Assembly (NCBI GenBank): GCA_046309355.1
Contig: JBKCPL010000057.1
Location: 14,668-78,667 of the forward strand
DNA length: 64,000 bases
Source of the DNA: Bacteroidota bacterium
Lineage (GTDB): Bacteria > Bacteroidota > Bacteroidia > UKL13-3
Direction of reading: 5' to 3'
How positions within the stretch are numbered: position 1 is the stretch's first letter; every line of letters begins with the position of its first letter. Both the position numbers and the translations under genes were made by a program. The notes beneath the pieces were generated by a model. It was not told the DNA's origin. It did no database searches and saw only the letters and a program-made list of their open reading frames with translations. Positions 1 through 12,954 of the stretch are shown here, one piece after another.

Positions 1-3
1 TGA

Positions 4-40
4 AAGAAGGCCCGCCACGCGAAGCGTGGCGGGCCTTCTT
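4..40. terminator. Perfect 17-bp stem / 3-nt loop GC-rich hairpin (AAGAAGGCCCGCCACGC-gaa-GCGTGGCGGGCCTTCTT), followed on + strand by ATTTATTTCTT; intrinsic terminator, lies 85 nt downstream of the ndk stop (minus strand) and may also terminate a + strand gene left of the window
   Basis: Read directly: perfect inverted repeat at 4-20 / 24-40, with T-rich tract after it on + strand. Confidence 0.6.
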
Positions 41-124
41 ATTTATTTCTTGTATTATGCGTAAAAAAAATCCCGACCACTGTTCAGCAATCGGGATGTA
101 TAATTAAATGACTAATAGATGTAA

Positions 125-544
125 TTAGAAGCGCTCGAAGCTGCTGAAGAAGAAACCTGCTTCGCGGGCTGCATTCTCATCGCTGTCGCTGCCATGTATA
201 GCATTGGCATCAATCGATTTGGCATACAAATTACGGATAGTGCCGGGCGCTGCTTTTTGCGGATCGGTAGCCCCTATTACTTCACGAAAATCAGCTACAG
301 CATTTTCTTTTTCGAGTACTGCAGCTACAATAGGACCTGAGGTCATAAAAGCTACCAGCTCTCCAAAAAACGGACGCTCGCGGTGAATATCATAAAACTC
401 ACCTGCTTTTTCTTCGCTCAGGCGGGTGTACTTCATGGCTTTGATTTTGAAGCCCTTTTGAATAATATGGTCAATAATTTTTCCGGTGTGGCCGTTTGCA
501 ACTGCATCGGGCTTAATCATGGTGAAGGTGATTTTTCCGCTCAT
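125..544 (-). CDS. ndk: nucleoside diphosphate kinase
   Basis: Translation ([15 protein letters not shown]...NAIHGSDS...) matches the NDK family over full length; start moved to internal Met (MSGK) of the longer ORF 125..595. Confidence 0.9.
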
Positions 545-625
545 ATATGTTTGTTTCTGAATTTCGGGGCGCAAAGATATTTTGATTTCTATCAAAACCT
601 ATAAAACCGGGTTAATTATCTGTTA
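473..625. repeat. Left copy of 153-bp direct repeat (covers ndk codons 1-24 plus 81 bp of ndk upstream/promoter region); att-like boundary of the island
   Basis: 473-625 is identical to 6213-6365 except one position (A575 vs G6315); also visible as duplicated antisense ORFs 383..604 and 6120..6344 in the ORF track. Confidence 0.9.
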
Positions 626-920
626 TTCCGATGATATTGATGTGATGATAAGTTAAATCATGCAAAATTTTATCTTGTTCCCAAATTATTAAGAAGCGTT
701 TTCAATTATTTGTTTTATGTAATTAACAGAAGACTGCCAATTCATTACAATTTACTATAACTTTTTGAATGTATTTATAATAGTATTCTTTATTCTAAAA
801 AGTTTGAGAACTATACTTATTAATACTATATGATTGTAGTTACAATAAGTTTTGTGACTAAATATTTGATTAGAAATTAAACATAACACAAAACAATAAT
901 TCCTGAAATTAAACAGATAA

Positions 921-1277
921 TTAATGAGTATTAATTTTATCAATTAGCTTTGTTATTTGTGTGTCTTTTACATTTAGTTGCTCTTTCAAGTATTGAACTT
1001 CTTTGCGTAACTCATCAACTAATTCTTTGGCATAAGTTATTTCAATACTATCAATCTCTTCAGTAGTAGTCATGGCTAATATCTTAGTCACACTAGTCTC
1101 GTATAGACTTGCTAATTTTTCTAAGCGTTCAACAGAAATAGCAACCTGACCACGTTCCATACGACCATAATTAGTTGTATCTATTTCTAAATAGTCAGCA
1201 ACCTGCTCTTGACTAATCCCTTTCTGTTTGCGAATTTGACGTATGGCTTCGTACACTGATATTTTTTTATTTACCAC
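921..1277 (-). CDS. XRE-family helix-turn-helix transcriptional regulator with C-terminal coiled coil (cI/Cro-like position, divergent from island operon)
   Basis: N-terminal HTH_XRE signature (KQKGISQEQVADYLEIDTTNYGRMERG); C-terminal heptad-like region (LVDELRKEVQYLKEQL). Confidence 0.7.
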   Translation of the reverse strand: MVNKKISVYEAIRQIRKQKGISQEQVADYLEIDTTNYGRMERGQVAISVERLEKLASLYETSVTKILAMTTTEEIDSIEITYAKELVDELRKEVQYLKEQLNVKDTQITKLIDKINTH

Positions 1278-1451
1278 AACACGAAATTATCGTTACAACC
1301 GTATGCATATAGTGCATAATAATCATATTTATATGCGTTTTTTATGTTATTAATTGCGTTATTTGCATTTTATTATTATCGTGTAACCAAATAATACATA
1401 TTTATAAAAACATTAAAAGTTTAAGTGGTTTACGAAAACTGCATAGTAAGA

Positions 1452-2249
1452 ATGAAAAATAAAATATTTACCGTTGCTGTACTACTATTCGCTACCTCAA
1501 CAAATGCGCAATGGAGTGGGCCTATAAATGGAACCTTAAATACTTCAAATTTTGTTAATATCAATCGATTTGGTATTGGAACAGGACCTAGTTTACCATT
1601 ACTATCTTTAAGTCATGACCCTGGAAATGGTGTATACTACCCTTTACATGTAACAGAGAATCGTGTGGGCATTGGCACAAATAATCCACAGGCGAGTTTT
1701 CATGTACTGAATAATTTGTTAATGACTAGGAGTAATAATACGGAGATTTTTAAAGTTAACTCGACTGGATTGCTCCGCTTAACTACAGATGGCATTGACA
1801 ATAATTTTAGAGGCTTCTATATAAACAATGGAAATAATGATTTTTTCGCATTAACACAGTCTAATATGTACTACAATGGTAAATTTACTTTAAAAGGAGA
1901 TCTTGTAATTAAGGATAATAATAATGATGTGCAGTATAGGTTATATCAGGATGGTTTAATAAGGGCACGTGAAGTTAAGGTAGATTTAAGTATTATACCT
2001 CCCGATTATGTATTTGAAGCCGGATATAAACTAATGCCTCTTAAAGAACTCGATAAGTATATTAAAGAAAATAAGCATTTACCGAGAATACCATCAGCTA
2101 AAGCTATGCAGGATGAAAATGGCATACAAGTCGGTTACATGCAATTATTACTATTAGAAAAAGTAGAGGAATTAACTTTATATTTACTTCAACTAAAAGA
2201 AGAGAATGAATGGTTGAAACAACGCATTACCCTACTCGAGCAGCAATAG
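1452..2249 (+). CDS. secreted tail-fiber domain protein (Peptidase_S74 / endosialidase intramolecular-chaperone-like C-terminal domain) with N-terminal GIGT repeats
   Basis: Signal peptide MKNKIFTVAVLLFATSTNAQ; repeated N(R)xGIGTxxP motifs; C-terminal PDYVFEAGYKLMPLKELDKYIKENKHLPRIPSA...EELTLYLLQLKEEN motif typical of Bacteroidota 'tail fiber domain-containing' proteins; start placed at Met10 of ORF 1425..2249. Confidence 0.6.
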   Translation: MKNKIFTVAVLLFATSTNAQWSGPINGTLNTSNFVNINRFGIGTGPSLPLLSLSHDPGNGVYYPLHVTENRVGIGTNNPQASFHVLNNLLMTRSNNTEIFKVNSTGLLRLTTDGIDNNFRGFYINNGNNDFFALTQSNMYYNGKFTLKGDLVIKDNNNDVQYRLYQDGLIRAREVKVDLSIIPPDYVFEAGYKLMPLKELDKYIKENKHLPRIPSAKAMQDENGIQVGYMQLLLLEKVEELTLYLLQLKEENEWLKQRITLLEQQ

Positions 2250-2929
2250 CATTGTTAGTTATGCTGTTGATAGTTGGTACAAGTAGTGCCCAGCGAGGAG
2301 TTGCGCTAAAAACAGGTGTGCTGTATGGTTACTCCTGGCTTACATTCAACGAAAGTTCGCAAAGTTTTGATAAACGACTTGCACGCGAAAAGATTAACTA
2401 TACGCCACTACAAAGTGTAGGGATTGAGATGGGTGCTCGCATTTTTATTTCATCAAAATTAGCATTGGAAGTAGTTCCACGTTGGCAGCAATGGGGTGGT
2501 ACAATCACCGTAAATAGTAATGAATATACCAACCAAATGCTGAAAATGGTAATTAATTATCAAAGCTTTCGAATACCCGCTACACTCCAATACGCCTTTG
2601 CCGGTAACGAGCGCTTGCAATTTTTTGCTTCACTTGGTATAGGCATAGATTATACCTACCGCTTATGGTTTTTACCCACTAACTACTATGGCAGTGCACC
2701 CACACAAAGACGTACTGTTGATATTGTAACACCATTTACTTCCATAGGTTTCGGTTTTACTTACACACCTAGCGCCAATAGTCAAATGAGTTATACGTTT
2801 GGTATCAATTATGAAACTGATGCTCTCTTAAACCCCGTCAGGTTTAATGAGTTCAATTTTTGGCAAAACTCTGTGCCGTTACTTTCGCATCAGCTCCATA
2901 CTTCTTTTCTAATACAGTACCGTTTATGA
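2210..2929 (+). CDS. outer-membrane beta-barrel (porin-family-like) protein
   Basis: Signal peptide ending SSAQ; alternating hydrophobic/aromatic beta-strand pattern, Y/F/W-rich; alternative start ATG at 2261 would remove the 40-nt overlap with the upstream gene. Confidence 0.45.
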   Translation: MVETTHYPTRAAIALLVMLLIVGTSSAQRGVALKTGVLYGYSWLTFNESSQSFDKRLAREKINYTPLQSVGIEMGARIFISSKLALEVVPRWQQWGGTITVNSNEYTNQMLKMVINYQSFRIPATLQYAFAGNERLQFFASLGIGIDYTYRLWFLPTNYYGSAPTQRRTVDIVTPFTSIGFGFTYTPSANSQMSYTFGINYETDALLNPVRFNEFNFWQNSVPLLSHQLHTSFLIQYRL

Positions 2930-3657
2930 AAATACATGTGATAAAATTATTGCTAGTTATCACCAGCACTATGGTATTGAACACCTGCTTGGCACAACTA
3001 TTTCATCCAAAAGACTCAGTGCGAAAGCAACGAATTGTGCAAGTGGGGCTAGGCGGCTATATGGGTGTTAACCATGTAAAGCCCATAAACCAAATCATGA
3101 GATATCAGATCGCAAACGGTTATGATAAGGGATTATTGGCTGATTTGAAAGTTAATATCACAAATTACTTATCGGTTAAAAGCGGCTTACGAATGAGTGA
3201 ACAAACAGCTATGCTTGGATATGGTAACAATACCTTTTTTGAATCATTTCATTTAACTATGAATAGGCAAACAGTACCAATGTTAATTTCTTTTAAAGCC
3301 AATCATGCCGGCATAAATTTATTTGATGTTGAATTAGGTATTGCTTACAATAACATATCCTTTCGCAGTACAAACAATAACACATATTGGCTGCTTACGT
3401 ATTATTTTGGCTCGCAATATACAGGTGGTTATTGGATAAATTATCAAAATGTAAGCGCTTTATCATATATCCTAAATATTAATAAGGAATATAAAATCAA
3501 AAAATCACTTTTCATCCAATTCTTTAGCGAACTAGATATACTGAGCAAAACACTTGATATACAAGATGCTTATCGGATGCCAGATTTATCTATTATTCAA
3601 TATCAGACACCGTTTATGCTATATAGTATAAGATTAGGAGTTGCAATAAAGTACTAG
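2926..3657 (+). CDS. outer-membrane beta-barrel-like protein (paralogous in style to the upstream gene)
   Basis: Start at internal Met (MKIHVIKLLLVITSTMVLNTCLAQ signal peptide), ATGA overlap with upstream stop; amphipathic beta-strand composition, C-terminal aromatic residue. Confidence 0.4.
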   Translation: MKIHVIKLLLVITSTMVLNTCLAQLFHPKDSVRKQRIVQVGLGGYMGVNHVKPINQIMRYQIANGYDKGLLADLKVNITNYLSVKSGLRMSEQTAMLGYGNNTFFESFHLTMNRQTVPMLISFKANHAGINLFDVELGIAYNNISFRSTNNNTYWLLTYYFGSQYTGGYWINYQNVSALSYILNINKEYKIKKSLFIQFFSELDILSKTLDIQDAYRMPDLSIIQYQTPFMLYSIRLGVAIKY

Positions 3658-3658
3658 T

Positions 3659-5776
3659 ATGAGAAAACATTTTTTTATAACATTATTTTTGTTAAGTATT
3701 GTGTTAGCTAATAACAGCATTGCACAAGTACCCAACAATATAATACCTAACAGCAATTTTAACCATGCAAATAGGGAACCCTTTGTATTACCTGCGTGCA
3801 ATACCCTATTAAAAAATAAAAATGATTATACATTAGTTATTGAGAATTGGAAGGGTGAAGGAGAACGTAACACACCTGAGTGGCGTTCATTTATTGCTGA
3901 CAACAATAATTCGTTTTGTAGTGTATGTAGCCCTTTAAATCCAACTGGACAAAATCCATTTATAGATGATAACTTTATCTTTATTGCGCAAGATGAACTT
4001 GTACCTTATGGTGAATGGCTTTATGCTGAATTGTATACATCTTTGAATTATGATAAAAAGTATAAATTAAGAGTAATTGGTCAAGGTCATTTACCTGCGC
4101 TACCATCTCTGCACGATCCCGGTGTTATTGCTATTCATCTTACTTTACCTGGCAGCAACTGGCACCATCAAAGTGAACTAGACAAAAGCATGATGAGTAT
4201 GATGTATTGCACACATCAGGAATATGAATGTAAACCAAGATCATTTGAACACATTTTTACAGTCACAAAACCGAATTTAAAACAAATTGTATTACAAGCA
4301 AACAATGCGGGATTCTTTATTGACCGAGTAGAACTTTACGAATACTGCACTGAGCTACTTACCCGGCAAGGCCGCACCTATAAATTTGACAGGGAATTAG
4401 AAGAGGCGGGAACCATTATAGCAGGTTCAGTAATTAACAATGCACCAGCAATGGGTGATGTAGTTATGCTGGATGGAAGCATTACCACCTATAAAGCGGC
4501 TAACGAGGTGAAATTAACAGAAGGATTTTATGTGAACAGAGGTGCTGATTTTAGTGCTAAAATTGCACCATGCGGGCAGGATTGTCCATCCACGAACATA
4601 AACATCCCTTCAGAATACGTGCTGTGCAATAGCGATTGTATTAATTTAACTACCGGTACGGTTACTCGCGGGTTAACAGTAAACTGGACTTCGCAAGATG
4701 CGCAAAACTTACAGTACTTATCATCTGTAAGTGTTATAAATCCTGTGTTTTGCCCACCACCTGGCACTTCGGGTGTTTATGAATACGATGTGGTTATACA
4801 AAATGGTTGCGGTGAAACAACAACTAAAAAAGTAACTATAAAATATTTTAGCACACCAGTTCCTGATCCTACAATTAATATTACAAATAGTAACTTAGCT
4901 ACATTACCTACCTATCCTGAAATAAGTGTAGCTTCTACTGAGTTTACCGAATATGTAAATTATGATATTTTAGATTGTAATGGCAATTTGATTCATACAC
5001 AAACATTCACATTCTTTAATCAACAAATGCCTCCGGCACCGGCTCAGTTTAAATTTAACCAATTTTTAGATCCCTGTGGTTGCTATAAAATAAGAATACG
5101 TCAGAAAAATCATTGTAATGAGACGATTGCTGAACAAATATTAGATTGGAATAGACAACAATCCATAAGCAATCTCTTTTTCCCTACATTTATTATATGT
5201 AAAGATGGAAAACGATTAATTTGTTTTGACGGTAAAGGAATAAAACAGTTTCAATTGCAATTGTTTAATAAGTGGGGACAATCTGTATTAAATACATCAG
5301 GTAGTTACAACAAAGACCCGTATTGTATAGAGTTTCCATCACACCTACCAGCAGGTCCATATTATTACATTATAACATTTATAGGATGTGATGGAAGTGT
5401 TCTTACTGCTAATGGAAGTATGCAAGTAGGGGGATGTGATGAATCCATGCTATTGATAAATAACAACGATACAGATAGCATAGAGGCATTTAATAACTTA
5501 GCCGACTCTATATTCATGGAATTAAGTCCTAATCCTACGGCAAATGAAGTGACAATAAGTTTTACCATACCCAATAGTGGTCAATTGAGAATTAATTTGC
5601 TAGATAAAAACTTAAGTCAAAATCAAGTGGTACACGATATGTATTACAGTAATAGTGGAAGTTATCAAATTAGCGTGCAAGTAAATCATCTGTCTGGTGG
5701 TATAAATTATTGCTTATTTGAGTTTATAAATGGAGGTACAGTTAAGGTATATAAAAAATTTACACTAATACGTTAA
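3659..5776 (+). CDS. 705-aa secreted T9SS cargo protein: internal CHU_C/type-B-like CTD segment plus C-terminal type-A Por secretion tail; Cys-rich middle region
   Basis: Signal peptide MRKHFFITLFLLSIVLANNSIAQ; C-terminus LSPNPTANEVTISF...GQLRINLLD...SGSYQISVQVNHLSGGINYCLFEF...KVYKKFTLIR fits the Por_Secre_tail pattern; internal QLQLFNKWGQSVLNT...LPAGPYYYIITF resembles the gliding-motility C-terminal (type B) domain. Confidence 0.55.
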   Translation: MRKHFFITLFLLSIVLANNSIAQVPNNIIPNSNFNHANREPFVLPACNTLLKNKNDYTLVIENWKGEGERNTPEWRSFIADNNNSFCSVCSPLNPTGQNPFIDDNFIFIAQDELVPYGEWLYAELYTSLNYDKKYKLRVIGQGHLPALPSLHDPGVIAIHLTLPGSNWHHQSELDKSMMSMMYCTHQEYECKPRSFEHIFTVTKPNLKQIVLQANNAGFFIDRVELYEYCTELLTRQGRTYKFDRELEEAGTIIAGSVINNAPAMGDVVMLDGSITTYKAANEVKLTEGFYVNRGADFSAKIAPCGQDCPSTNINIPSEYVLCNSDCINLTTGTVTRGLTVNWTSQDAQNLQYLSSVSVINPVFCPPPGTSGVYEYDVVIQNGCGETTTKKVTIKYFSTPVPDPTINITNSNLATLPTYPEISVASTEFTEYVNYDILDCNGNLIHTQTFTFFNQQMPPAPAQFKFNQFLDPCGCYKIRIRQKNHCNETIAEQILDWNRQQSISNLFFPTFIICKDGKRLICFDGKGIKQFQLQLFNKWGQSVLNTSGSYNKDPYCIEFPSHLPAGPYYYIITFIGCDGSVLTANGSMQVGGCDESMLLINNNDTDSIEAFNNLADSIFMELSPNPTANEVTISFTIPNSGQLRINLLDKNLSQNQVVHDMYYSNSGSYQISVQVNHLSGGINYCLFEFINGGTVKVYKKFTLIR

Positions 5777-5789
5777 CTCGTAATGATAT

Positions 5790-6212
5790 ATGAGGCTGTT
5801 AATCTCAATATTACTATTTCAAATACTACTATTTTCTGTGAATATTGGTGCACAATCGAGGATAGATCATATTGACTTTTTTGAGGGCAGTAATACTAAA
5901 ACTGCCACAACACTAGCAATTGATTCGCAGTCTACTTCGGTAAGCGGCATTGTTAATACGGGTGCTATAAACAACACTTATTCGTTAATATCTAAGGATA
6001 GTATCACCTTACATCGTAAGCTACGCTTTGGGTTGGGTGTTTTCGGTGGCATGTCAAATTACTTCACTACTTCAAATGCATTTAGTACTCAAACACAAAT
6101 TGGAAAAGATTAAGGTGCATTGGTACATGTTAGTTATAGAATCACTAAAAAAATATCATTTGATGCAGAGCTTAGATATGTAGGTAAAAATTTATATACT
6201 TCATATGCAAAT
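5790..6212 (+). pseudogene. outer-membrane beta-barrel gene disrupted by an in-frame TAA (6114-6116) and truncated at the island/repeat junction
   Basis: ORFs 5790..6113 and 6120..6344 are in the same frame, separated by one stop; the second piece (…FDAELRYVGKNLYTSYANNNF) is OMP-like and then runs into the duplicated ndk sequence. Confidence 0.5.
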
Positions 6213-6365
6213 AATAATTTTTCCGGTGTGGCCGTTTGCAACTGCATCGGGCTTAATCATGGTGAAGGTGATTTTTCCGCTCATATATGTTTGTTTCTGA
6301 ATTTCGGGGCGCAAGGATATTTTGATTTCTATCAAAACCTATAAAACCGGGTTAATTATCTGTTA
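6213..6365. repeat. Right copy of 153-bp direct repeat; contains a second ndk promoter and an orphan 24-codon ndk 5' fragment (6213-6284, minus strand)
   Basis: 152/153 identity to 473-625. Confidence 0.9.
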
Positions 6366-6398
6366 CTGCATGCCCTTGAAACACCTGAGGTTGTTAAA

Positions 6399-7571
6399 TT
6401 GCCCTATATTCGCAACGTGAAAAATCCGCTACGTACACGCATTGGCATCATTGGTGGAGGTCAGCTGGGCCGCATGATGATTGAGGAGTCGCTACGGCTC
6501 AATGTATCTTTCAATACGCTGGATGCAGCCGATTGTCCCTGTGTCCGATTATCGGCACAGCATATTGCAGGAAAACTCACCGATGGTGATGCTATACGTA
6601 AGCTGGCTGCCATAAGCGATGTACTTACCTACGAAATTGAACATATTGATGTAGCCACACTGCTGCAATTGGAGCGTGAGGGTAAAACCATCATTCCATC
6701 GCCACAGGTATTGCAGATTATTCAGGATAAAGGTTTACAAAAACAATTTTTTGAAACGAACGGGTTGCCTACTGCACCTTTTGTGTTGGTAAACACCGCT
6801 GCAGAGTGGCCTCAGGCTGCTCAGCAACTGGGTGGTGAAAAACTGGCCGCCAAAACCCGCAAAGACGGGTATGATGGAAAAGGTGTGTGTTTGGTAACAA
6901 CCGCTGACGTAATGCGTGGCCATTTACCGTTTGATGTGCCTTCGGTATTGGAGCAATTTATACCTTGCCAGAAGGAGTTATCTGTACTGGTAGCCCGCAC
7001 GGCAACAGGTGATGTAACCACATGGCCGGTGGTTGAAATGGTGTTCGACCCGGTAGCCAATTTGGTTACGTTTTTAGAATGCCCTTCGCAAGTTGATGCT
7101 TCGCTTCAACAACAAGCGCGTGATATCTCTATCAAAGCAATTCAATTACTGAACGGTGTGGGCGTATTTGCCGTTGAGTTATTTTTAACTGAAAACAATA
7201 CTATCCTTATCAACGAAATTGCTCCGCGCCCGCACAACTCGGGCCACCACACTATTGAAGCCTGTTATACTTCTCAGTTCGAACAACTGGTTCGCATCTT
7301 GTGCGGATTGCCTCTGGGAAATACCGATTTGATACAGCCCGCTGTAATGATGAACCTGCTTGGCGCACCTGATTTCAATGGCCCGTATGCCTTGCAAGGC
7401 TTACATGAGGCTATGCACACCGAAGGTGTGTACATTCATTTATACGACAAAGCTGAGAGCAAACCCATGCGTAAAATGGGGCATGTTACTATTATGGCAC
7501 CTACGCTTGAATCAGCTATAGAAAAAGCTTACAAAATAAAAGATTTACTGAAGTTTGTTCCCGAGGGCTAG
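6399..7571 (+). CDS. purK: N5-carboxyaminoimidazole ribonucleotide synthase (ATP-grasp)
   Basis: GIIGGGQLGRMM N-terminus and ATP-grasp body typical of PurK. Confidence 0.85.
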   Translation: MPYIRNVKNPLRTRIGIIGGGQLGRMMIEESLRLNVSFNTLDAADCPCVRLSAQHIAGKLTDGDAIRKLAAISDVLTYEIEHIDVATLLQLEREGKTIIPSPQVLQIIQDKGLQKQFFETNGLPTAPFVLVNTAAEWPQAAQQLGGEKLAAKTRKDGYDGKGVCLVTTADVMRGHLPFDVPSVLEQFIPCQKELSVLVARTATGDVTTWPVVEMVFDPVANLVTFLECPSQVDASLQQQARDISIKAIQLLNGVGVFAVELFLTENNTILINEIAPRPHNSGHHTIEACYTSQFEQLVRILCGLPLGNTDLIQPAVMMNLLGAPDFNGPYALQGLHEAMHTEGVYIHLYDKAESKPMRKMGHVTIMAPTLESAIEKAYKIKDLLKFVPEG

Positions 7572-7578
7572 TCTGCTT

Positions 7579-9666
7579 TCACACACTTCCGTTCCATTTG
7601 CGTATGCCCCACTCCAGGGTTAGCAGTGTCAGCAATACATAAAAAATCCATTTCACATCAATCCAGCTTTTGCGCTCTTTGCCTGTATATACAATAGGTT
7701 GTAATGCATCATGTTGCTGTATGGCTTCAGCTAGTGTATTCAGGTTATGAGCCTGCACTGCATAGCCTCCGGTTTGTGCAGCCAGCTCGCGCATCAGTTG
7801 TGCATGGGCAACATTTTCAGTTTGCTCCAACTGCAGCGGCACAACATAAAAACTACCGCTGGTTTTCAGCTGTTCACTGCCACGTGTTGCTGTGGCAGTG
7901 TAAGTATATTTTCCTGGTGTCAATACTCCGGCTTGAAGCGTGTATCTGTTTTGCTGTGCTGAAAGTGCATAGGTGTATTCTTTTCCTGCGCTGTTTTTAA
8001 TGGTTACCCGTACATCGGCATCTTGTATTGTTTCATAGCTTTCATTGTACACTTCAGCATCGGCTGTGATGGTTTCATTTTCTTCGTAGCGGTTGTTAAA
8101 CAACAAGCGAAAACGCGCATTGTCTTTTCGTGTCGACAGATATTGAATGGTTTTTTGAATGAGCTGCGTTACCGTTTGCTGATTGTTTAGTTGAAAATCG
8201 GCTAGGTGCCAGCGCCATATTCCTTCACCGCAAATAAACGCTGAACGCTGTGTGGCACTTTTCAAAAAAAACCACAACGGGTAATTCGTTTTTACATATC
8301 CAATTTGCTGCGTAAGCAGTGCTTCGTAGTCACCGGCTACGCTATATGTGGCAAACGGACTAAGCAATGGTGGAAATTTAGTGAGCACGTTTTTTTCGGT
8401 TTCGTCCAGTATAAACAAACCGAATTGTTCATTCACATTGGCAAGGGCCTCGTTGCTGGACTGGTTGCGAAATTGTATGCGAAATGCAGGCTCCAGTGCG
8501 GTTAGTACATTTAGTCCAGTCATGCTGCCCAATACATACAACAGGGGTGTATTGCGGCTTTTAAACTCTTCAATCAGCTTTTGACCTTCGCCACGCCAAC
8601 CGGGCAATTGATGCAGCACAACAAGGCTGTATGCATTAGTCGGTTTCATGCCCGACAAGTCATTGATGTACTGTACCTCGCAGCTGTATCCTTCAGTGGC
8701 CTCAATCATTTTTTTCATGGCGCCCAAATCAGGATGCGGTGCAAATGCCAGCAACAGCACACGCTGACGATTGGAAATAATATTTACGTAGGCCTCATAC
8801 ACATTATTTTGTGTGGTTTTTTCTCCGCTTACGGCACTTACTTTTATACGGTATATCTGTGAGCCTTCGCCCAGTGCAGGAATGGTGAGTGTATGTGTTT
8901 CGAAAAAGGAAGAACCGGTGTACGAAATATTTTTTTGTGCCAAGGTATTTCCATTATGCGAAATACTGAGTACAGCACTTTGTCCCGAACAGTTATCTGC
9001 TGCTACATCCACCTGAATAGCGATGTTGTTTCCTGTAAATGCCACCTGATTGCAGCGTACATTTTTTATACGTGCATCTTTAGGCGCAACCGTATCGCCC
9101 AGAAGTACGGTAAATATCGGAACGGCCATATCTGCCGAACTGTACAACGGATTATCGCCACGGTTGTAAAGTCCGTCACTGATTAATACAACTGCGCCCA
9201 GCTGTGCGCTTTCGTAGCGGTTGCTAATCTGAGTCAGCGTTTTGCTGATATCGGTTATTTTTCCATCGTATGCAGGAGTTGAACGTGCATTTAACTGCTC
9301 ATCAAAGGTGTGATGTACGACTTCAAAATCGGACTCGAGTAGGCGTTTAAATTCATTCAGTTCAGTTTGAAAATTACTTTTATAGTATGCGGCTTCGCGA
9401 CTTCCGGCAACCGATTGACTGTTGTCGGATGCAATAACCAGTACAGGTTTTTGTGTGCGTTCGGTAATCCATTCGCTTACCGGTCCTGTTAAGAGCAAGG
9501 CCAAAATGAACAGCACGGCAAAGCGCACGCCCATAAGTATGCGTTGCACCAACACACCGGTTTTTCCTTCTAGTCGAAGCGGATTACTGCGGTACAGCCA
9601 CCACGCAGCAGCAGCCGATGCAGCAGCAGAAGGAATAATTAGCCACGGTGAATATTCAAACGTCAT
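7579..9666 (-). CDS. BatA-like N-terminal double-transmembrane domain protein (VWA-like), Bacteroidota-conserved
   Basis: Two N-terminal TM helices (PWLIIPSAAASAAAAWWLY; FAVLFILALLLTG) followed by a VWA-like region, ~700 aa, as in the TIGR02226-type family. Confidence 0.5.
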   Translation of the reverse strand: MTFEYSPWLIIPSAAASAAAAWWLYRSNPLRLEGKTGVLVQRILMGVRFAVLFILALLLTGPVSEWITERTQKPVLVIASDNSQSVAGSREAAYYKSNFQTELNEFKRLLESDFEVVHHTFDEQLNARSTPAYDGKITDISKTLTQISNRYESAQLGAVVLISDGLYNRGDNPLYSSADMAVPIFTVLLGDTVAPKDARIKNVRCNQVAFTGNNIAIQVDVAADNCSGQSAVLSISHNGNTLAQKNISYTGSSFFETHTLTIPALGEGSQIYRIKVSAVSGEKTTQNNVYEAYVNIISNRQRVLLLAFAPHPDLGAMKKMIEATEGYSCEVQYINDLSGMKPTNAYSLVVLHQLPGWRGEGQKLIEEFKSRNTPLLYVLGSMTGLNVLTALEPAFRIQFRNQSSNEALANVNEQFGLFILDETEKNVLTKFPPLLSPFATYSVAGDYEALLTQQIGYVKTNYPLWFFLKSATQRSAFICGEGIWRWHLADFQLNNQQTVTQLIQKTIQYLSTRKDNARFRLLFNNRYEENETITADAEVYNESYETIQDADVRVTIKNSAGKEYTYALSAQQNRYTLQAGVLTPGKYTYTATATRGSEQLKTSGSFYVVPLQLEQTENVAHAQLMRELAAQTGGYAVQAHNLNTLAEAIQQHDALQPIVYTGKERKSWIDVKWIFYVLLTLLTLEWGIRKWNGSV

Positions 9667-9681
9667 TAATTACAGTACGGA

Positions 9682-10431
9682 TTACATAACCATACCACCG
9701 CACACATTAATGGTTTGTCCGCTGATGTAGGCCGATAAATCAGATGATAAAAACACCACACAGTTTGCCACATCATCAGGAGTTCCACCTCGTTTCAGCG
9801 CAATTCCTTTTACCCATTCGGCTCGTACTTCAGCCGACAGGGCTTCAGTCATTTCAGTTTCAATAAAACCCGGTGCAATGGCATTGCAGCGAATATTGCG
9901 CGAGCCCAGTTCTTTGGCTACTGATTTTGTCAGGCCTATCATTCCGGCTTTTGAGGCAGCATAATTGGCTTGGCCTGCATTGCCTGTAATACCTACTACC
10001 GAAGTAATATTGATGATGCTGCCTGCCTTGGCTTTCATCATGGGGCGCATGGCGGCTTTGGTCAGTGCAAATGCTGATTTCAGGTTGGTATCCAACACTT
10101 CGTCCCACATTTGTTCGGTCATGCGCATCAGTAAATTATCACGTGTTATTCCGGCATTATTTACCAATATATCGAGCGTGCCAAATTCTTTGACGATTTC
10201 ATCTACCAGTTTTTCGGCTTCGCTAAAATCAGCGGCATTGCTTTGATACCCTTTGGCTTTTACACCCAAAGTGTTCAGTTCGGCTTCAAAGGCCTTGGCT
10301 TTTTCAACCGAGCTTACAAAGGTGAAGGCGATGTGAGCACCCTGCTGTGCCAGTTTAAGCGCAATGCCTTTGCCAATGCCACGGGTTGCTCCGGTTACTA
10401 GTGCGGTTTTTCCTGAAAGTAATAAACTCAT
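9682..10431 (-). CDS. fabG: 3-oxoacyl-[acyl-carrier-protein] reductase (SDR)
   Basis: TGATRGIGKGIA Rossmann motif, NNAG, YxxxK (YAASKAG) catalytic motif; full-length FabG similarity. Confidence 0.85.
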   Translation of the reverse strand: MSLLLSGKTALVTGATRGIGKGIALKLAQQGAHIAFTFVSSVEKAKAFEAELNTLGVKAKGYQSNAADFSEAEKLVDEIVKEFGTLDILVNNAGITRDNLLMRMTEQMWDEVLDTNLKSAFALTKAAMRPMMKAKAGSIINITSVVGITGNAGQANYAASKAGMIGLTKSVAKELGSRNIRCNAIAPGFIETEMTEALSAEVRAEWVKGIALKRGGTPDDVANCVVFLSSDLSAYISGQTINVCGGMVM

Positions 10432-10475
10432 GAGTATTGTTTTTATAGGTGGTAAAAGTACATGCTACACATCAA

Positions 10476-10853
10476 TCATACAACTCGTTTTGACAGCCTG
10501 AATCTCCACCATACCACCATACAACCTAATCCGTTGGCCAGCACATCAAAATAATCGAAAAAACGCGTGGTGGTAAGCCATGATTGCAGCAACTCAGTAA
10601 GTATGCCATACATAAACGAGGCCAAACAAGCTATGGTCAGAAATTTAGTGTCGGCTTGCTTATGGCATCTGTATACCAGCCATGCTTGCATTCCGAAAAG
10701 CAACATGTGAATGGGTTTATCATAGGCAAATAAATCGGACAGGCGCAGTGCCTTAAGCGTGCTAACATTGGCTATGGTAGCAAATAAAATGAATATCGCC
10801 CAGGCGGTGGCCAGGGCGATGTAAGATTTCGATGTGGATACCGATTTAATCAT
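10476..10853 (-). CDS. VanZ-like small membrane protein
   Basis: Four TM segments, DKxxH motif ([11 protein letters not shown]); start moved to Met19; overlaps pgk stop by 8 nt. Confidence 0.45.
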
Positions 10854-12060
10854 TGATGGCTTTAATACCGGGTAGTTCTTTGCCTTCAAAATATTCGAGC
10901 AAGGCACCCCCTCCGGTACTCACATAACTCACCTGATTTTCGTATCCAAACTTTGCCACAGCTGCTGCACTATCGCCACCACCTATTAAAGAAAAGGCTC
11001 CGTTTTTGGTGGCTTCGGCTACGGCTTCGGCAGCTGCTTTGGTGCCGGATTCAAATTTTTTCATTTCGAATACACCCATCGGGCCGTTCCACAAAATGGT
11101 TTTCGAAGCTTTGATTACCACATTGTTTTCTTCAATGGCTTTTGGTCCGATGTCAAGTCCCATCCACCCGGCTTCGATATGTTTGTTGTCACAAACTTTA
11201 GCATTGGCATCGGCATCAAATTTATCGGCCACAACTGAATCTGCCGGCAGCAGCAGTTTTACGCCTTTGCTTTCAGCTTTTTTCATCAGTTCGATACACA
11301 ATTCCAGTCGGTCGTTTTCGCACAGCGATGAGCCTATTTCATACCCCATAGCTTTAAGAAAGGTGTACGCCATGCCACCACCTATGATGAGGTTATCAAC
11401 CCTGTCAATCAGGTTTTCGAGAATAAGCAGTTTGTCTGAAACCTTGGCACCACCGGTAATAGCGGTAAACGGACGCTCGGCATTTTTCATCACCTTCTCG
11501 GCATTTTCTATTTCGCGCGCCATCACATAACCAAAACATTTGGCTGCAGGAAAATACTGTGCTATAACCGCAGTTGAAGCGTGTGCGCGGTGTGCCGTAC
11601 CGAATGCATCATTTACATAAATATCGCCCATTGCTGCCAGTTTTTGTGCAAAAGCCACGTCACCTTTTTCCTCTTCTTTGTAAAAGCGTAGGTTTTCAAG
11701 TAGCAATACTTCGCCCGGTTTGAGTGTTGCTGCCATTTCAGCAGCCTGTGCACCTACGCAGTCATCTGCAAACTTGACGGACACTCCCAGCAATTCGGAT
11801 GTACGTTGTACGGTATGTTTAAGGGTAAATTTTTCTTTGTCTATGCTTCCGTCTTCTTTAAGTTTTTTCAAAGGACGGCCCAGGTGCGACATCAAAATGC
11901 AGGAGCCACCGTCATTTAGTATTTTTTTGAGTGTGGGTATGGTGGCACGTATGCGGGCATCATCGGTAATGGTTAAAGTAGTTTTATCTAGAGGCACATT
12001 AAAATCAACACGCACCAATGCGCGTTTGCCGGCAAATGAAAGCTGATCAACTGTTTTCAT
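10846..12060 (-). CDS. pgk: phosphoglycerate kinase
   Basis: Full-length PGK similarity ([10 protein letters not shown]..., GGGASLELLEGK-like C-terminus [16 protein letters not shown]). Confidence 0.95.
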
Positions 12061-12097
12061 AATTCAATTCATAGTTGGTGAATAAAAAAAGTGGGGC

Positions 12098-12105
12098 AAA
12101 AATAG
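12098..12105 (-). promoter_or_regulatory. Candidate Bacteroidota sigma-A -7 element (TATTTTTG, fits TAnnTTTG) ~40 nt upstream of pgk start
   Basis: Motif read on the minus strand of the pgk upstream region; position only, no expression data. Confidence 0.25.
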
Positions 12106-12120
12106 ATTTTTTAGGCACTT

Positions 12121-12570
12121 TTGAGCACCATGAAAAACGGAATATGCGTATTATCCATACTGTTCATGATTTTTGCATGCAGCAACAAACGCGAGCAGAT
12201 GCTATGTAAAACCTGGCAGGTAAGTGATGTGCAGTTTTACAATGTTGAACAAGCCATCGTATTAAGCGATACGTTGCAAGGCGATCAGATAGAAGTGGCC
12301 AAAGGCAATTTGCGCGATATGCTCATGAAAAATATTTACGCATTTGATGAAGACGGTACGTTTAAAACGGGAAATGCAGTTGCAGAAGCCGAAGGTGAGT
12401 GGAAGCTGAAAAACGATGCCCTCCTTTTTGTCGTAGTAAATGAAGAGGGTAAAAAAAAGAAAGAAGTACCGGTTGAAAAACTGACAGACGATTCGCTTAT
12501 TTTGGCTATGGGAAACGATCAAACCAGCCTGAAGGTACGCCTTATTTTAACTCCTGTAATTACTGATTAA
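12121..12570 (+). CDS. small lipoprotein, unknown function
   Basis: Lipobox (LFMIFAC-S); stop overlaps next start (TAATG). Confidence 0.5.
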   Translation: MSTMKNGICVLSILFMIFACSNKREQMLCKTWQVSDVQFYNVEQAIVLSDTLQGDQIEVAKGNLRDMLMKNIYAFDEDGTFKTGNAVAEAEGEWKLKNDALLFVVVNEEGKKKKEVPVEKLTDDSLILAMGNDQTSLKVRLILTPVITD

Positions 12571-12926
12571 TGATGTGGCTTTCCTGGTATAAAGTTTACG
12601 ATTTCATGAGGCATGGCTCGCAACCACAGGAGGTAAACTCGGTGCGTACTGTTGATGTAGAAGGCAAACGCATAAGCCTTGCGTATGATGGCACTCACTA
12701 TTTTGCTCTGGCCGATCGGTGCCCGCATGCCGGTGCACGGTTTGGTGCTGGTGGCTGGTGCGATAAAGGCTTATTGGTATGCCCGGTGCACCGCTATAAA
12801 TACGAGTTGAAAAACGGTAAAGGAATACAGGGCGATTTTATAGAGACCTACAAAACAGAAATACGACACGATGGAGTATATGTAGGCTTGCCACGCAACG
12901 GTAAGTGGTGGTGGCCCTTTTCATAA
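12570..12926 (+). CDS. Rieske [2Fe-2S] domain protein (NirD-like small ferredoxin)
   Basis: CPH...C..H boxes: CPHAGARFG and CPVHRYKY. Confidence 0.7.
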   Translation: MMWLSWYKVYDFMRHGSQPQEVNSVRTVDVEGKRISLAYDGTHYFALADRCPHAGARFGAGGWCDKGLLVCPVHRYKYELKNGKGIQGDFIETYKTEIRHDGVYVGLPRNGKWWWPFS

Positions 12927-12954
12927 GCATTGTTTTGCAAGAAGTGTACTTACG

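Follow-up and report, generated by a model that had tools for sequence, protein, structure and literature searches.

An AT-rich island of surface-protein genes between ndk and purK in an uncultured Bacteroidota species: probable single-event capture of foreign DNA

Background

Integrative elements such as the dusA elements (e.g., IMEVchUSA3) and SXT/R391 at prfC insert at the 5' end of a housekeeping gene, and the dusA elements carry a diverged replacement segment for the gene that they displace (61% identity over 35 residues; PMC8409611). CIMEs are decayed integrative elements that retain attL and attR (PMC5704250), whereas the Escherichia coli H47 island, which carries microcin H47, lacks a recombinase gene, and its mobility has been attributed to host functions (PMC3191183, PMC5426353). 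Direct repeats on both sides of an insert are also generated when a suicide vector integrates by Campbell-type recombination, and illegitimate recombination during natural transformation provides a further route by which DNA can be joined to a chromosome (PMC3240628, PMC8116780).

Here, we analyzed a 64,000-nt stretch of DNA (hereafter referred to as the window) in which an AT-rich island lies between ndk and purK. A sequence-only reading had interpreted the island as acquired DNA whose borders are the attL and attR of a site-specific element, one that inserts into the 5' end of ndk and rebuilds the gene. The first part of this proposal is supported by empty sites and by composition, whereas the attL/attR part is unsupported, and the island resembles foreign DNA acquired in a single event more than an integrative element able to mobilize itself.

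Results

Repeat search and alignment revealed a 153-nt direct repeat (hereafter R) whose two copies are identical at 152 of 153 positions, each consisting of exactly ndk codons 1-24 (473-544 in the left copy) and the 81 nt upstream of them (545-625; Table 1). A 44-nt core of R was found at only two sites in the 64 kb, where none would be expected by chance, and a 40-mer of R was confined to the ndk-purK locus across the JGI metagenomes, with no match in viral contigs. The arrangement is the one that the sequence-only reading had described, with the ndk promoter in the repeat, an intact ndk that holds the left copy and an orphan stub at the right, beside purK. The Ndk protein is identical on 10 public contigs. 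The true start of purK is probably the GTG at 6417, and this gene has its own TAnnTT(T/C)G box at ~6405-6412, outside R, as seen in an alignment of the intergenic region.

The only mismatch between the copies is an A at 575 (left) and a G at 6315 (right). The Bacteroidota -7 promoter consensus is TAnnTTTG, and TATCTTTG is accordingly a putative -7 box of ndk; the sole difference between the R copies falls inside this box. The box is kept upstream of ndk in 22 of the 23 related species compared, and position 575 is an A in all 23; the G at 6315 is derived. We also found that the last 13 nt of R, TTAATTATCTGTT (612-624 and 6352-6364), have a perfect inverted copy at 912-924, which overlaps the stop codon of the XRE gene. 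This 13-nt sequence therefore has three copies in the 64 kb, against 0.16 expected at up to one mismatch.

Table 1 Features of the ndk-purK region, with positions given in the window
Feature	Position	Strand	Basis or detail
Intact ndk, nucleoside-diphosphate kinase, 139 aa	125..544	-	Pfam NDK (E = 8e-54) and NCBIfam
Left R copy	473..625	.	ndk codons 1-24 and 81 nt upstream; A at 575
Putative Bacteroidota-type -7 box of ndk, TATCTTTG	572..579	-	Conserved in the alignment of relatives
AT-rich island, 5,587 bp	626..6212	.	Composition and absence from empty-site contigs
Non-coding, very AT-rich left end of island	626..920	.	Includes an arm region of the 13-nt inverted repeat
XRE-family helix-turn-helix regulator, 118 aa	921..1277	-	Pfam HTH_3 (E = 2e-14)
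Secreted fibre-like protein, 274 aa by ORF	1425..2249	+	Homologs and profile match
Putative outer-membrane beta-barrel protein, 239 aa	2210..2929	+	Pfam OMP_b-brl (E = 5e-5, short of the curated threshold)
Paralogous envelope protein, 243 aa on public contigs	2926..3657	+	Gene calls on L001 and L011; alignment of cassette paralogs
Secreted protein, 705 aa	3659..5776	+	3-coathanger stack domain and type IX secretion C-terminal domain
Pseudogene of the 260-aa cassette outer-membrane protein	5790..6212	+	tblastx and alignment with the 260- and 259-aa genes of L092
Orphan ndk stub ORF	6201..6284	-	24 Ndk residues, then ICI and a stop
Right R copy	6213..6365	.	Derived G at 6315; -7 box broken to TATCCTTG
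purK (N5-CAIR synthase)	6399..7571	+	Pfam and NCBIfam

The higher AT content that had been noted for the island was borne out by windowed analysis, with a GC fraction of 0.337 vs 0.440 ± 0.008 (minimum 0.423) in every other 5.6-kb interval. Codon usage also differed sharply (GC3 of 0.284 vs 0.449 ± 0.034 in the background; z = -3.2 to -6.2 for six island genes; Mann-Whitney p = 1e-7), as did the tetranucleotide distance to the background (0.40 vs a maximum of 0.152 elsewhere). Searches with Pfam, NCBIfam, PHROGs and PADLOC agreed with the earlier description of the cargo as accessory secreted or outer-membrane proteins plus an XRE regulator, and the domain matches in the island were restricted to this regulator and to envelope-protein domains. 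The XRE gene is divergent from the cassette operon and matched PHROGs families of transcriptional regulators and repressors. The fibre-like protein, which likely starts at the ATG at 1452, had no Pfam match but 512 homologs in Bacteroidota; its family profile matched the Bdellovibrio Bd2133 fibre (8ond, E = 1.8e-10), and its AlphaFold2 model is beta-rich with a long C-terminal helix (mean pLDDT = 77.8). Weak OMP_b-brl_2 matches were obtained for the orthologs of the putative beta-barrel protein. The 705-aa protein matched NCBIfam GCX_COOH (E = 3.5e-9), with Pfam CHU_C and Por_Secre_tail just below the cut-off, and had only 28 homologs, all from Bacteroidota metagenomes. For the non-coding left end, no homolog was found in any locus fetched.

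Collinear homologous cassettes were detected at four other loci in other Bacteroidota (L092; L094, L095 and L104; L101; L102), where they are plain chromosomal gene clusters with no flanking repeats, no recombinases and no other mobility genes. Compared with its own flanks, the cassette at L092 is AT-rich as well; low GC is thus characteristic of the cassette family. The island cargo is a fragment of this kind of accessory cell-surface gene cassette, and its right end shows where the fragment was broken. The pseudogene at this end contains a TAA at codon 108 (6111-6113) and aligns with its orthologs up to residue 141 of ~260, where it is cut exactly at the R junction. The L092 ortholog has AAT AAT at the codons matching the junction, and R starts with AATAAT; the joint probably lies in this 6-nt microhomology, which is deduced from one 69%-identical ortholog and consists of a motif common in AT-rich DNA. 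Judged by its sequence, the right end of the island is an illegitimate breakpoint, not an element terminus.

We further compared occupied and empty forms of the locus. True empty sites, >99% identical, were found on three metagenome contigs (L003, L004 and L008), in which ndk, one R copy and purK are contiguous, and both R copies of the window match this single copy. The adjacency of ndk and purK is the ancestral state and was found in 23 related species, which indicates that the island is a recent, strain-variable gain, in line with the acquired insertion proposed from the letters alone. Among 80 purK loci of related species (23 with complete adjacent ndk and purK), no second ndk fragment and no island gene were detected. 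At least 12 occupied sites were independently assembled, and the island is near-invariant among them (0-5 differences). Since the junctions, the pseudogene and the arrangement of the A (left) and G (right) alleles are all the same across these assemblies, the occupied sites point to one origin. In every contig, the left copy lies between the ndk body and the island start, and the right copy between the island end and the purK flank; the island start was linked only with A and the island end only with G, and this constant linkage indicates that the integrated form is real. Empty and occupied forms were found together in one sample (3300032093). One further contig (L010; 684 nt, 1.4x coverage, possibly chimeric) shows an empty site with the derived G and the window's own flank alleles.

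The reported lack of an integrase, transposase or relaxase was confirmed, and no other recombinase was found among the island ORFs with Pfam, NCBIfam, PHROGs and PADLOC; the non-coding stretches of the island are too short for a recombinase gene. No remnants of integration or transfer genes were detected in the island, and no recombinase was found in the 10 kb of left flank (L002, L106) or, on the right side, among the 32 ORFs of the remaining 57 kb that were checked with Pfam, which lie between 6.4 and 56 kb. A circular or tandem junction (island end - R - island start) was absent from ~35 assembled contigs of at least 15 samples. The island ends have no terminal inverted repeats, and the island showed no phage similarity and no viral-contig match, its one plasmid match being a trivial 98 nt. 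In the literature searched, we found no report of ndk as an integration site. A transposon or insertion sequence was rejected given the lack of a transposase and of terminal inverted repeats and a duplication of 153 bp rather than of short, fixed length. Likewise unsupported are a site-specific integrative element (no recombinase inside, a broken gene at the right end and no use of the ndk target found in related species) and descent of a CIME from an ICE or IME (no integration or transfer remnants and no intact relative found at ndk). As in H47-type islands, there is no recombinase gene, long direct repeats flank both ends, and empty sites occur in other strains.

Discussion

We consider there to be an even chance that the cassette was captured once, by recombinase-independent illegitimate recombination that duplicated the target. 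A cassette fragment would have entered the ndk-purK intergenic region in a single lineage of this uncultured Bacteroidota species, through microhomology-mediated end-joining, template switching or homology-facilitated illegitimate recombination. This event would have duplicated 147-153 bp of the target, comprising the ndk promoter and the first 24 codons, and would have left ndk with an intact gene and promoter and the orphan stub beside purK. The R copies would then represent a target duplication, not attachment sites, and may today provide only 153 bp of homology for precise deletion of the island by host recombination. Within the population, the island is probably spread or lost by ordinary homologous recombination through its flanks. 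The architecture of the locus, its polymorphism among strains, the ancestral empty state, the broken cargo end and the lack of a nearby recombinase and of repeats around related cassettes are observations; how the DNA was joined, the involvement of microhomology and the part played by the repeats in loss are inferences. Two R copies identical at 152 of 153 positions, with a matching copy at the empty site, are expected for duplicated host DNA, and the derived G of the orphan is consistent with a mutation that arose after this copy had become dispensable.

To our knowledge, a target duplication of 153 bp is far longer than that produced by any transposase or casposase. We also know of no documented bacterial illegitimate DNA capture with a duplication of this length, which counts against such a capture here. 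The extent of R counts against it as well, since the ndk promoter plus 24 codons is equally what a gene-rebuilding element would carry; we assume that this extent results from selection acting on the outcome. A capture also leaves unexplained why the last 13 nt of R recur in inverted orientation at 912-924, and this, too, weighs against it.

Alternatively, a 5.74-kb circle consisting of R and the island may have crossed over with the R of the chromosome through host recombination, either dependent on RecA or independent of it, a course of events that we consider possible but unlikely. The reverse reaction, unlikely to the same degree, would excise the island and make it a passive, episome-like cassette moving between strains of one species. 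A single crossover between circle and chromosome would yield exactly two full-length direct copies with sharp edges and would agree with an island that lacks a recombinase, and 153 bp of perfect identity should suffice for host homologous recombination. The coexistence of both forms in sample 3300032093 also fits, and the G-allele empty site of L010 is what excision with a crossover left of 575 would leave, although this short contig could instead be a chimeric path through the 102 nt common to both copies. The recombinase-less H47 island, moved by host functions, offers a precedent (PMC3191183, PMC5426353). However, such a circle would need a prior illegitimate joining of R to the truncated cassette gene, which adds steps, and its junction was not seen in the ~35 contigs. 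Moreover, all occupied sites have one allele arrangement despite the existence of A-type empty sites, with no sign of repeated integration.

It is decidedly unlikely that the island is a decayed or cargo-only site-specific element in which R is the attachment site of a tyrosine or serine recombinase encoded elsewhere or on a helper, and just as unlikely that it enters the ndk 5' end and supplies a replacement promoter and N-terminus. The layout does resemble attL and attR, the repeat spans just the displaced part of the gene and its promoter, the island is truly polymorphic among strains, and CIMEs are a defined class in which att sites are kept and integration genes lost (PMC5704250). Against this and against the original attL/attR interpretation, no integrase was found within the island, close to it or among the 32 Pfam-checked ORFs of the remaining 57 kb, and neither integration nor transfer genes have left remnants. 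A would-be attP would have its right arm inside the outer-membrane protein gene truncated at residue 141, and the R copies are identical to each other (but for one position) and to the host empty site, unlike the diverged dusA segment (PMC8409611). The homologous cassettes at four unrelated loci have neither att-like repeats nor recombinases, none of the 80 related purK loci has an ndk insertion, an ndk stub or an island gene, the island end - R - island start junction is missing from the assembled contigs, the R 40-mer is known only from the ndk-purK locus in JGI metagenomes and is absent from viral contigs, and ndk has no reported use as an integration site in the literature searched. That R is a working attachment site at which a recombinase encoded elsewhere in the genome or on a helper element moves the cargo cassette into and out of the ndk 5' end in natural populations, with the gene and its promoter rebuilt on each occasion, is very unlikely; in that case, the island would represent a satellite, carrying cargo only, of a hitherto unseen family of ndk-targeting elements.

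An assembly artefact, in which a separate circular or unrelated contig sharing the 153 bp was threaded into an empty chromosome, is extremely improbable: R does have the length of a short read, and the assembly graph branches at R, with several contigs breaking exactly at its edge (L002, L005) or 30 nt inside it (L011, L112, L114), but the A/G difference phases the copies (ndk body - A - island start; island end - G - purK) through links each <141 nt, no contig links the island end to A or the island start to G, and L001, L107, L108 and L109 span the whole structure alike in MEGAHIT, SPAdes-type and JGI assemblies and in another MAG.

Like the dusA elements and SXT/R391, the island sits at the 5' end of a housekeeping gene that keeps its promoter and full N-terminus, with the displaced part orphaned at the other end. 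The known elements bring along an integrase and an excision factor, span 20-100 kb and are mobilisable, whereas the island comprises 5.6 kb of surface-protein genes with no integrase, its R copies are near-identical host sequence, and one of its ends is a broken gene. With CIMEs, it shares flanking direct repeats, the lack of integration and transfer genes and presence or absence among strains; a CIME is the descendant of an ICE or IME at the site and depends on a related element with a matching integrase, and none was found in the relatives of the island. The H47 island is similarly small and free of a recombinase gene, with long direct repeats and empty sites elsewhere. Its imperfect repeats are found in many other islands of E. 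coli, and experiments have demonstrated its excision and integration, whereas R duplicates a unique host promoter and gene start, and L010 is the only hint of excision. Suicide-vector integration also duplicates the common fragment directly on both sides and is reversible between the copies, but it is a laboratory construct, and a natural circle of a 153-bp host fragment and a truncated cassette is hypothetical here. Reported illegitimate recombination events usually delete recipient DNA rather than duplicate ~150 bp, which sets them apart from the island. In other respects, the island resembles homology-facilitated or double illegitimate recombination in transformation, which is a one-off process with microhomology joints, arbitrary breakpoints and no dedicated recombinase.

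Repeat structure and flanking genes

Repeat search and alignment bore out the sequence-only reading that the island is bounded by a 153-nt direct repeat (R), whose two copies are identical at 152/153 positions, the sole mismatch being A in the left copy and G in the right. A 44-nt core of R has no further occurrence in the 64-kb window (0 expected by chance). R takes in the 81 nt upstream of ndk together with precisely its first 24 codons, and the right copy forms an orphan ndk stub, the predicted product of which is 24 Ndk residues and then ICI before a stop. The true start of purK is most likely the GTG rather than the TTG. Upstream of this GTG, an alignment of 23 relatives shows a conserved TAnnTT(T/C)G box that ends ~5 nt away in the relatives, and the spacing suggests a very short or absent leader. 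The predicted purK core promoter and its probable start lie to the right of R, so that purK would be independent of the duplication and ndk dependent on it.

Features of the ndk-purK locus, contigs that carry the occupied form, and homologous cassette loci (window coordinates unless a locus is named)
Feature	Coordinates	Strand	Remarks
ndk	125-544	minus	139 aa; Pfam NDK, E=8e-54
R, left copy	473-625		A at 575
Putative ndk -7 box	572-579	ndk strand	
Palindrome TTTTGAT-ttct-ATCAAAA	581-597		
13-nt repeat, copies in R	612-624, 6352-6364		last 13 nt but one of R
13-nt repeat, inverted copy	912-924		over the XRE stop codon
XRE-family regulator	921-1277	minus	island
Envelope-protein operon			divergent from the XRE gene; the four rows below
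Fibre-like protein	1425-2249		first in operon; 274 aa; no Pfam match
Two putative outer-membrane barrel proteins			239 and 243 aa; after the fibre-like gene
705-aa protein			after the barrel genes; 3-coathanger stack domain and type IX secretion C-terminal domain
Pseudogene	5790-6212		last in operon
R, right copy	6213-6365		G at 6315
purK	6399/6417-7571		after right R; TTG at 6399, GTG at 6417
L107, occupied	456-10540		
L108, occupied	1-6366		
L109, occupied	24-6348		
L001, occupied			another MAG
L092, cassette	7225-13965		XRE on opposite strand, then 272-, 223-, 243-, 710-, 260- and 259-aa genes
L094 / L104, cassette	7897-13660 / 2-5681		
L101, cassette	7527-12136		
L102, cassette	259-4097		

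Composition and gene content of the island

The 5,587-bp island has a GC content of 0.337, against 0.440 ± 0.008 in all other 5.6-kb windows (minimum 0.423), a GC3 of 0.284 against 0.449 ± 0.034 (z = -3.2 to -6.2 for its six genes) and a tetranucleotide distance to the background of 0.40 against ≤0.152 elsewhere. It is thus sharply unlike its surroundings, and the proposal of an acquired segment withstood the windowed GC and codon-usage comparison. Each protein of the operon carries an N-terminal hydrophobic stretch, signal-peptide-like by eye in the translations. The 274-aa fibre-like protein belongs to a family with 512 Bacteroidota matches, an invariant C-terminal motif (PDYVF...HLP...EELTLY) and no Pfam model, the profile of which matches Bdellovibrio chimeric fibre proteins (8ond, 8oml), with E=1.8e-10 for the Bd2133 fibre; unlike the sequence profile, a Foldseek search with a model of the protein gave no significant match. 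In some sources, family members are annotated as 'BZIP transcription factor' or 'SlyX family'. At 2183, a 1-nt deletion toggles the gene between a 274-aa and a 256-aa form (L099, L107, L110, L111), and a 1-nt insertion at 698/699 recurs in several contigs; both are possibly homopolymer length variation.

Searches of the island ORFs against Pfam, NCBIfam, PHROGs and PADLOC revealed no integrase, transposase, relaxase, replication protein, phage structural protein or defence system, in agreement with the first reading of the sequence as regards the first three. A phage, plasmid or defence origin was rejected, as PHROGs and PADLOC match the XRE protein only; similarity searches matched no phage, no viral contig and one plasmid, the last over a trivial 98 nt. 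An Rfam search of positions 1-8000 returned terminator-like noise at the window start only. For the left 295 nt of the island, a non-coding stretch, the fetched data contain no homolog.

Ancestral state of the locus

A scan for PurK with one genome per species yielded 80 loci, and the closest PurK is only ~70% identical, so the host species itself is not among them. Of the 80, 23 have a complete ndk upstream of purK, divergently oriented and 60-180 nt away; at three further loci the contig ends inside ndk, and one (L027, 9363-10000) has a 639-nt ndk-purK gap that holds no second ndk fragment. Across all 80 loci we found no second ndk fragment and no island gene within 10 kb. Relatives therefore do not share the island genes between ndk and purK, which would have pointed to an ancestral arrangement; their adjacent ndk-purK pairs without island genes indicate that the empty arrangement is ancestral and the island a gain. 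A large insertion was also considered as the reason why some species have purK without an adjacent ndk, and was rejected: in these species purK lies beside different housekeeping genes.

Empty and occupied sites in natural populations

Public assemblies queried with the exact Ndk protein and the 107-aa pseudogene product provided about 35 contigs that are >99% identical to the window. The island is present in at least 12 assemblies, and several contigs cover the whole structure. In three contigs from three JGI samples (L003, L004 and L008), the ndk body leads through a single R copy directly into purK, with the A allele beside the purK flank. This allele and the purK flank were never combined within 55 nt in the occupied form, which identifies the three as true empty sites; strains with a contiguous ndk-purK, as sought for the predicted empty site, thus exist at >99% identity. 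Sample 3300032093 contains the empty and occupied forms side by side; the occupied form is also present in SRR31534990, SRR31534991 and SRR35828740. Without exception among the contigs, A is linked to both the ndk body and the island start and G to the island end, while the purK flank is linked to either allele. Each link spans <141 nt, and this consistent phasing indicates that the integrated arrangement is real and not an assembly artefact. Occupied contigs differ at 0-5 positions across the 5.6-kb island, and their flanks are equally uniform save for small SNP patches inside ndk; relative to population diversity, the gain is recent. Together, these findings establish the island as a genuine, recent and strain-variable acquisition; that it was acquired had been proposed from the sequence.

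Among the about 35 contigs, which are assemblies rather than reads, no junction from island end through R to island start was found, as would mark an excised circle or tandem array. Several contigs break either precisely at an R edge or 30 nt inside R, and a repeat of about read length should produce such breaks. The L001 contig stops 101 nt beyond ndk, near the window start, and L002 and L005 begin exactly at the outer R edge; public assemblies of the host species are prone to breaks around this locus. Contig L010 (684 nt, 1.4x coverage) shows an empty site that carries the derived G together with the flank alleles of the window itself, the pattern that island loss across R would leave, but it could also be a chimeric path through the 102 nt common to the copies.

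The ndk body (window 22-455) has dense SNP patches at 239/245/248/251, 362/371/374/377 and 441-443/455 (L002-L010, L098, L099, L106 and L108) in contigs otherwise ~99.9% identical; L108 and L106, for example, differ at 12 sites inside ndk, three in the 3.2 kb to its left and one in the island. These patches resemble short tracts converted from diverged ndk alleles, or a mix-up with a related species during assembly. A sweep of the island across diverged backgrounds was considered, given island-linked ndk haplotypes up to 18 nt from R, and was rejected because L108 and L106 are ~99.9% identical outside the patches. Moreover, A-type R is identical in the empty and occupied forms, so short-read contigs are possibly chimeric across R, and the sweep argument was not used.

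Homologous cassettes and the island junctions

The 705-aa protein has only 28 homologs, all in Bacteroidota MAGs or metagenomes. Its closest relative (69% identity) lies in a collinear cassette in L092, flanked by a thiolase gene and a DUF4293-AIRS-family gene cluster; this cassette is likewise AT-rich, with GC of 0.31-0.37 compared with 0.43-0.47 on either side, and no repeat of at least 25 nt flanks it. Neither flanking repeats nor mobility genes were found at three further, more distant cassette loci, including L101, whose flanks are themselves AT-rich. An apparent flanking duplication around the L101 cassette, in which a 'Helicase_C' fragment faces a DEAD-box helicase, was discarded, as it is a different helicase gene split by a run of N. 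The content that recurs at these four chromosomal loci in other Bacteroidota is a fibre-like protein, at least two barrel proteins and a ~700-aa secreted protein, sometimes with an XRE regulator and two further barrel paralogs. The cassette appears to be an uncharacterised, often relocated surface-structure module in Bacteroidota; by sequence comparison it is apparently a movable piece of the accessory genome in this group, with low GC as a family trait and no conserved attachment system.

The last island gene has counterparts in the 260- and 259-aa genes of L092, with which it aligns over residues 1-141, exactly up to the start of R; a TAA stands at its codon 108. The island cassette is thus a fragment broken inside a gene, with the second paralog missing. 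Its right end reads '...TATGCAAATAATAAT' up to the point where it meets R. R opens with AATAAT, and the L092 ortholog reads AAT AAT at the matching codons; judged from this ortholog, the right joint therefore probably falls within a 6-nt microhomology, although such a motif is common in AT-rich DNA. The nearest cassette is 69-75% identical to the island, and a donor search for a closely similar cassette whose sixth gene is intact matched the pseudogene product itself only.

The single mismatch and the ndk promoter

The Bacteroidota -7 promoter consensus is TAnnTTTG, and the ndk strand at 572-579 reads TATCTTTG, which fits it and marks a putative -7 box. Of 23 relatives, 22 keep this box and all have A at position 575. 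The orphan copy carries the derived G, which breaks the putative box to TATCCTTG; this fits a mutation in a copy no longer required for driving ndk, and might also reduce antisense transcription into the island. The nearby palindrome was rejected as a recombinase core site, since it is not conserved in relatives and overlaps an ndk-strand TTTG motif, taken as a putative -33 promoter element. The 13-nt sequence TTAATTATCTGTT near the end of R has a perfect inverted copy 287 nt away. It is found at only three places in the 64 kb, where 0.16 copies are expected if up to one mismatch is allowed; chance, an operator for the XRE regulator and a remnant of the joining event are possible explanations. 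Beside the inverted arm, positions 1-56 of L007 (2.6x coverage) form a 56-nt fold-back in which window 891-946 forward is joined to 896->1 reverse, probably an assembly artefact.

Mechanism of insertion and implications

The simplest account, to which we give about an even chance, is a family of explanations in which a single recombinase-independent illegitimate event captured a linear cassette fragment. Such a fragment would have been joined into the ndk-purK region with duplication of 147-153 bp of target, possibly by fill-in of staggered ends, by a replicative template switch re-entering the chromosome 153 nt behind its exit point, or by homology-facilitated illegitimate repair with DNA from an empty-site strain, the last of which would account for the differing alleles in the two R copies. 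This rare outcome may then have been retained by selection, since through the duplication ndk kept both its promoter and codons 1-24. The weak point of illegitimate capture is the length of the duplication, as we know of no documented 147-153 bp target duplication from such capture in bacteria. A Campbell-type crossover between the chromosome and an R-bearing circle would yield the observed structure, and the H47 island of E. coli, which lacks a recombinase, is a documented parallel (PMC3191183, PMC5426353). Such a crossover, however, requires R to have been joined to the broken cassette gene beforehand, hence extra steps, and we consider it unlikely. Mobilisation by a recombinase acting in trans, a CIME-like state (PMC5704250), seems improbable: no recombinase was found in the island, in the 10 kb to its left (GAPDH, DUF3127, CysS and other housekeeping genes) or in 32 Pfam-checked ORFs 6.4-56 kb to its right. 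The original proposal, an attL/attR pair of a site-specific element that targets and rebuilds the ndk 5' end, was not supported by the tests run, as we found no recombinase in the DNA covered, no defined ends, no target reuse by relatives and no diverged element-borne segment of the kind that dusA-targeting elements carry (PMC8409611). The proposal also predicts an attP junction, and none was seen in the assembled contigs, the data set searched.

Whichever model applies, the island could now be lost precisely across the 153 bp of identity between the two R copies, and the duplication is a built-in route back to the empty site. The locus is a clean natural example of a bacterium gaining a block of surface-protein genes without mobile-element machinery; one population retains both the empty and the occupied allele, and 23 relatives reveal the ancestral state. 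The target duplication, exact and unusually long, left both neighbouring housekeeping genes working, which may explain the survival of a rare insertion type. For genome scanning, a pair of long direct repeats resembling attL/attR is insufficient for calling a site-specific element; informative tests are whether the cargo ends are intact and how homologous cassettes behave at other loci. Practical importance is limited by an uncultured organism, putative cargo roles and an inferred mechanism. Rather than a new class, the structure is best described as a genomic islet that lacks an integrase and is delimited by an exact target duplication of unusual length, and it shares the lack of a recombinase with the H47 island of E. 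coli.
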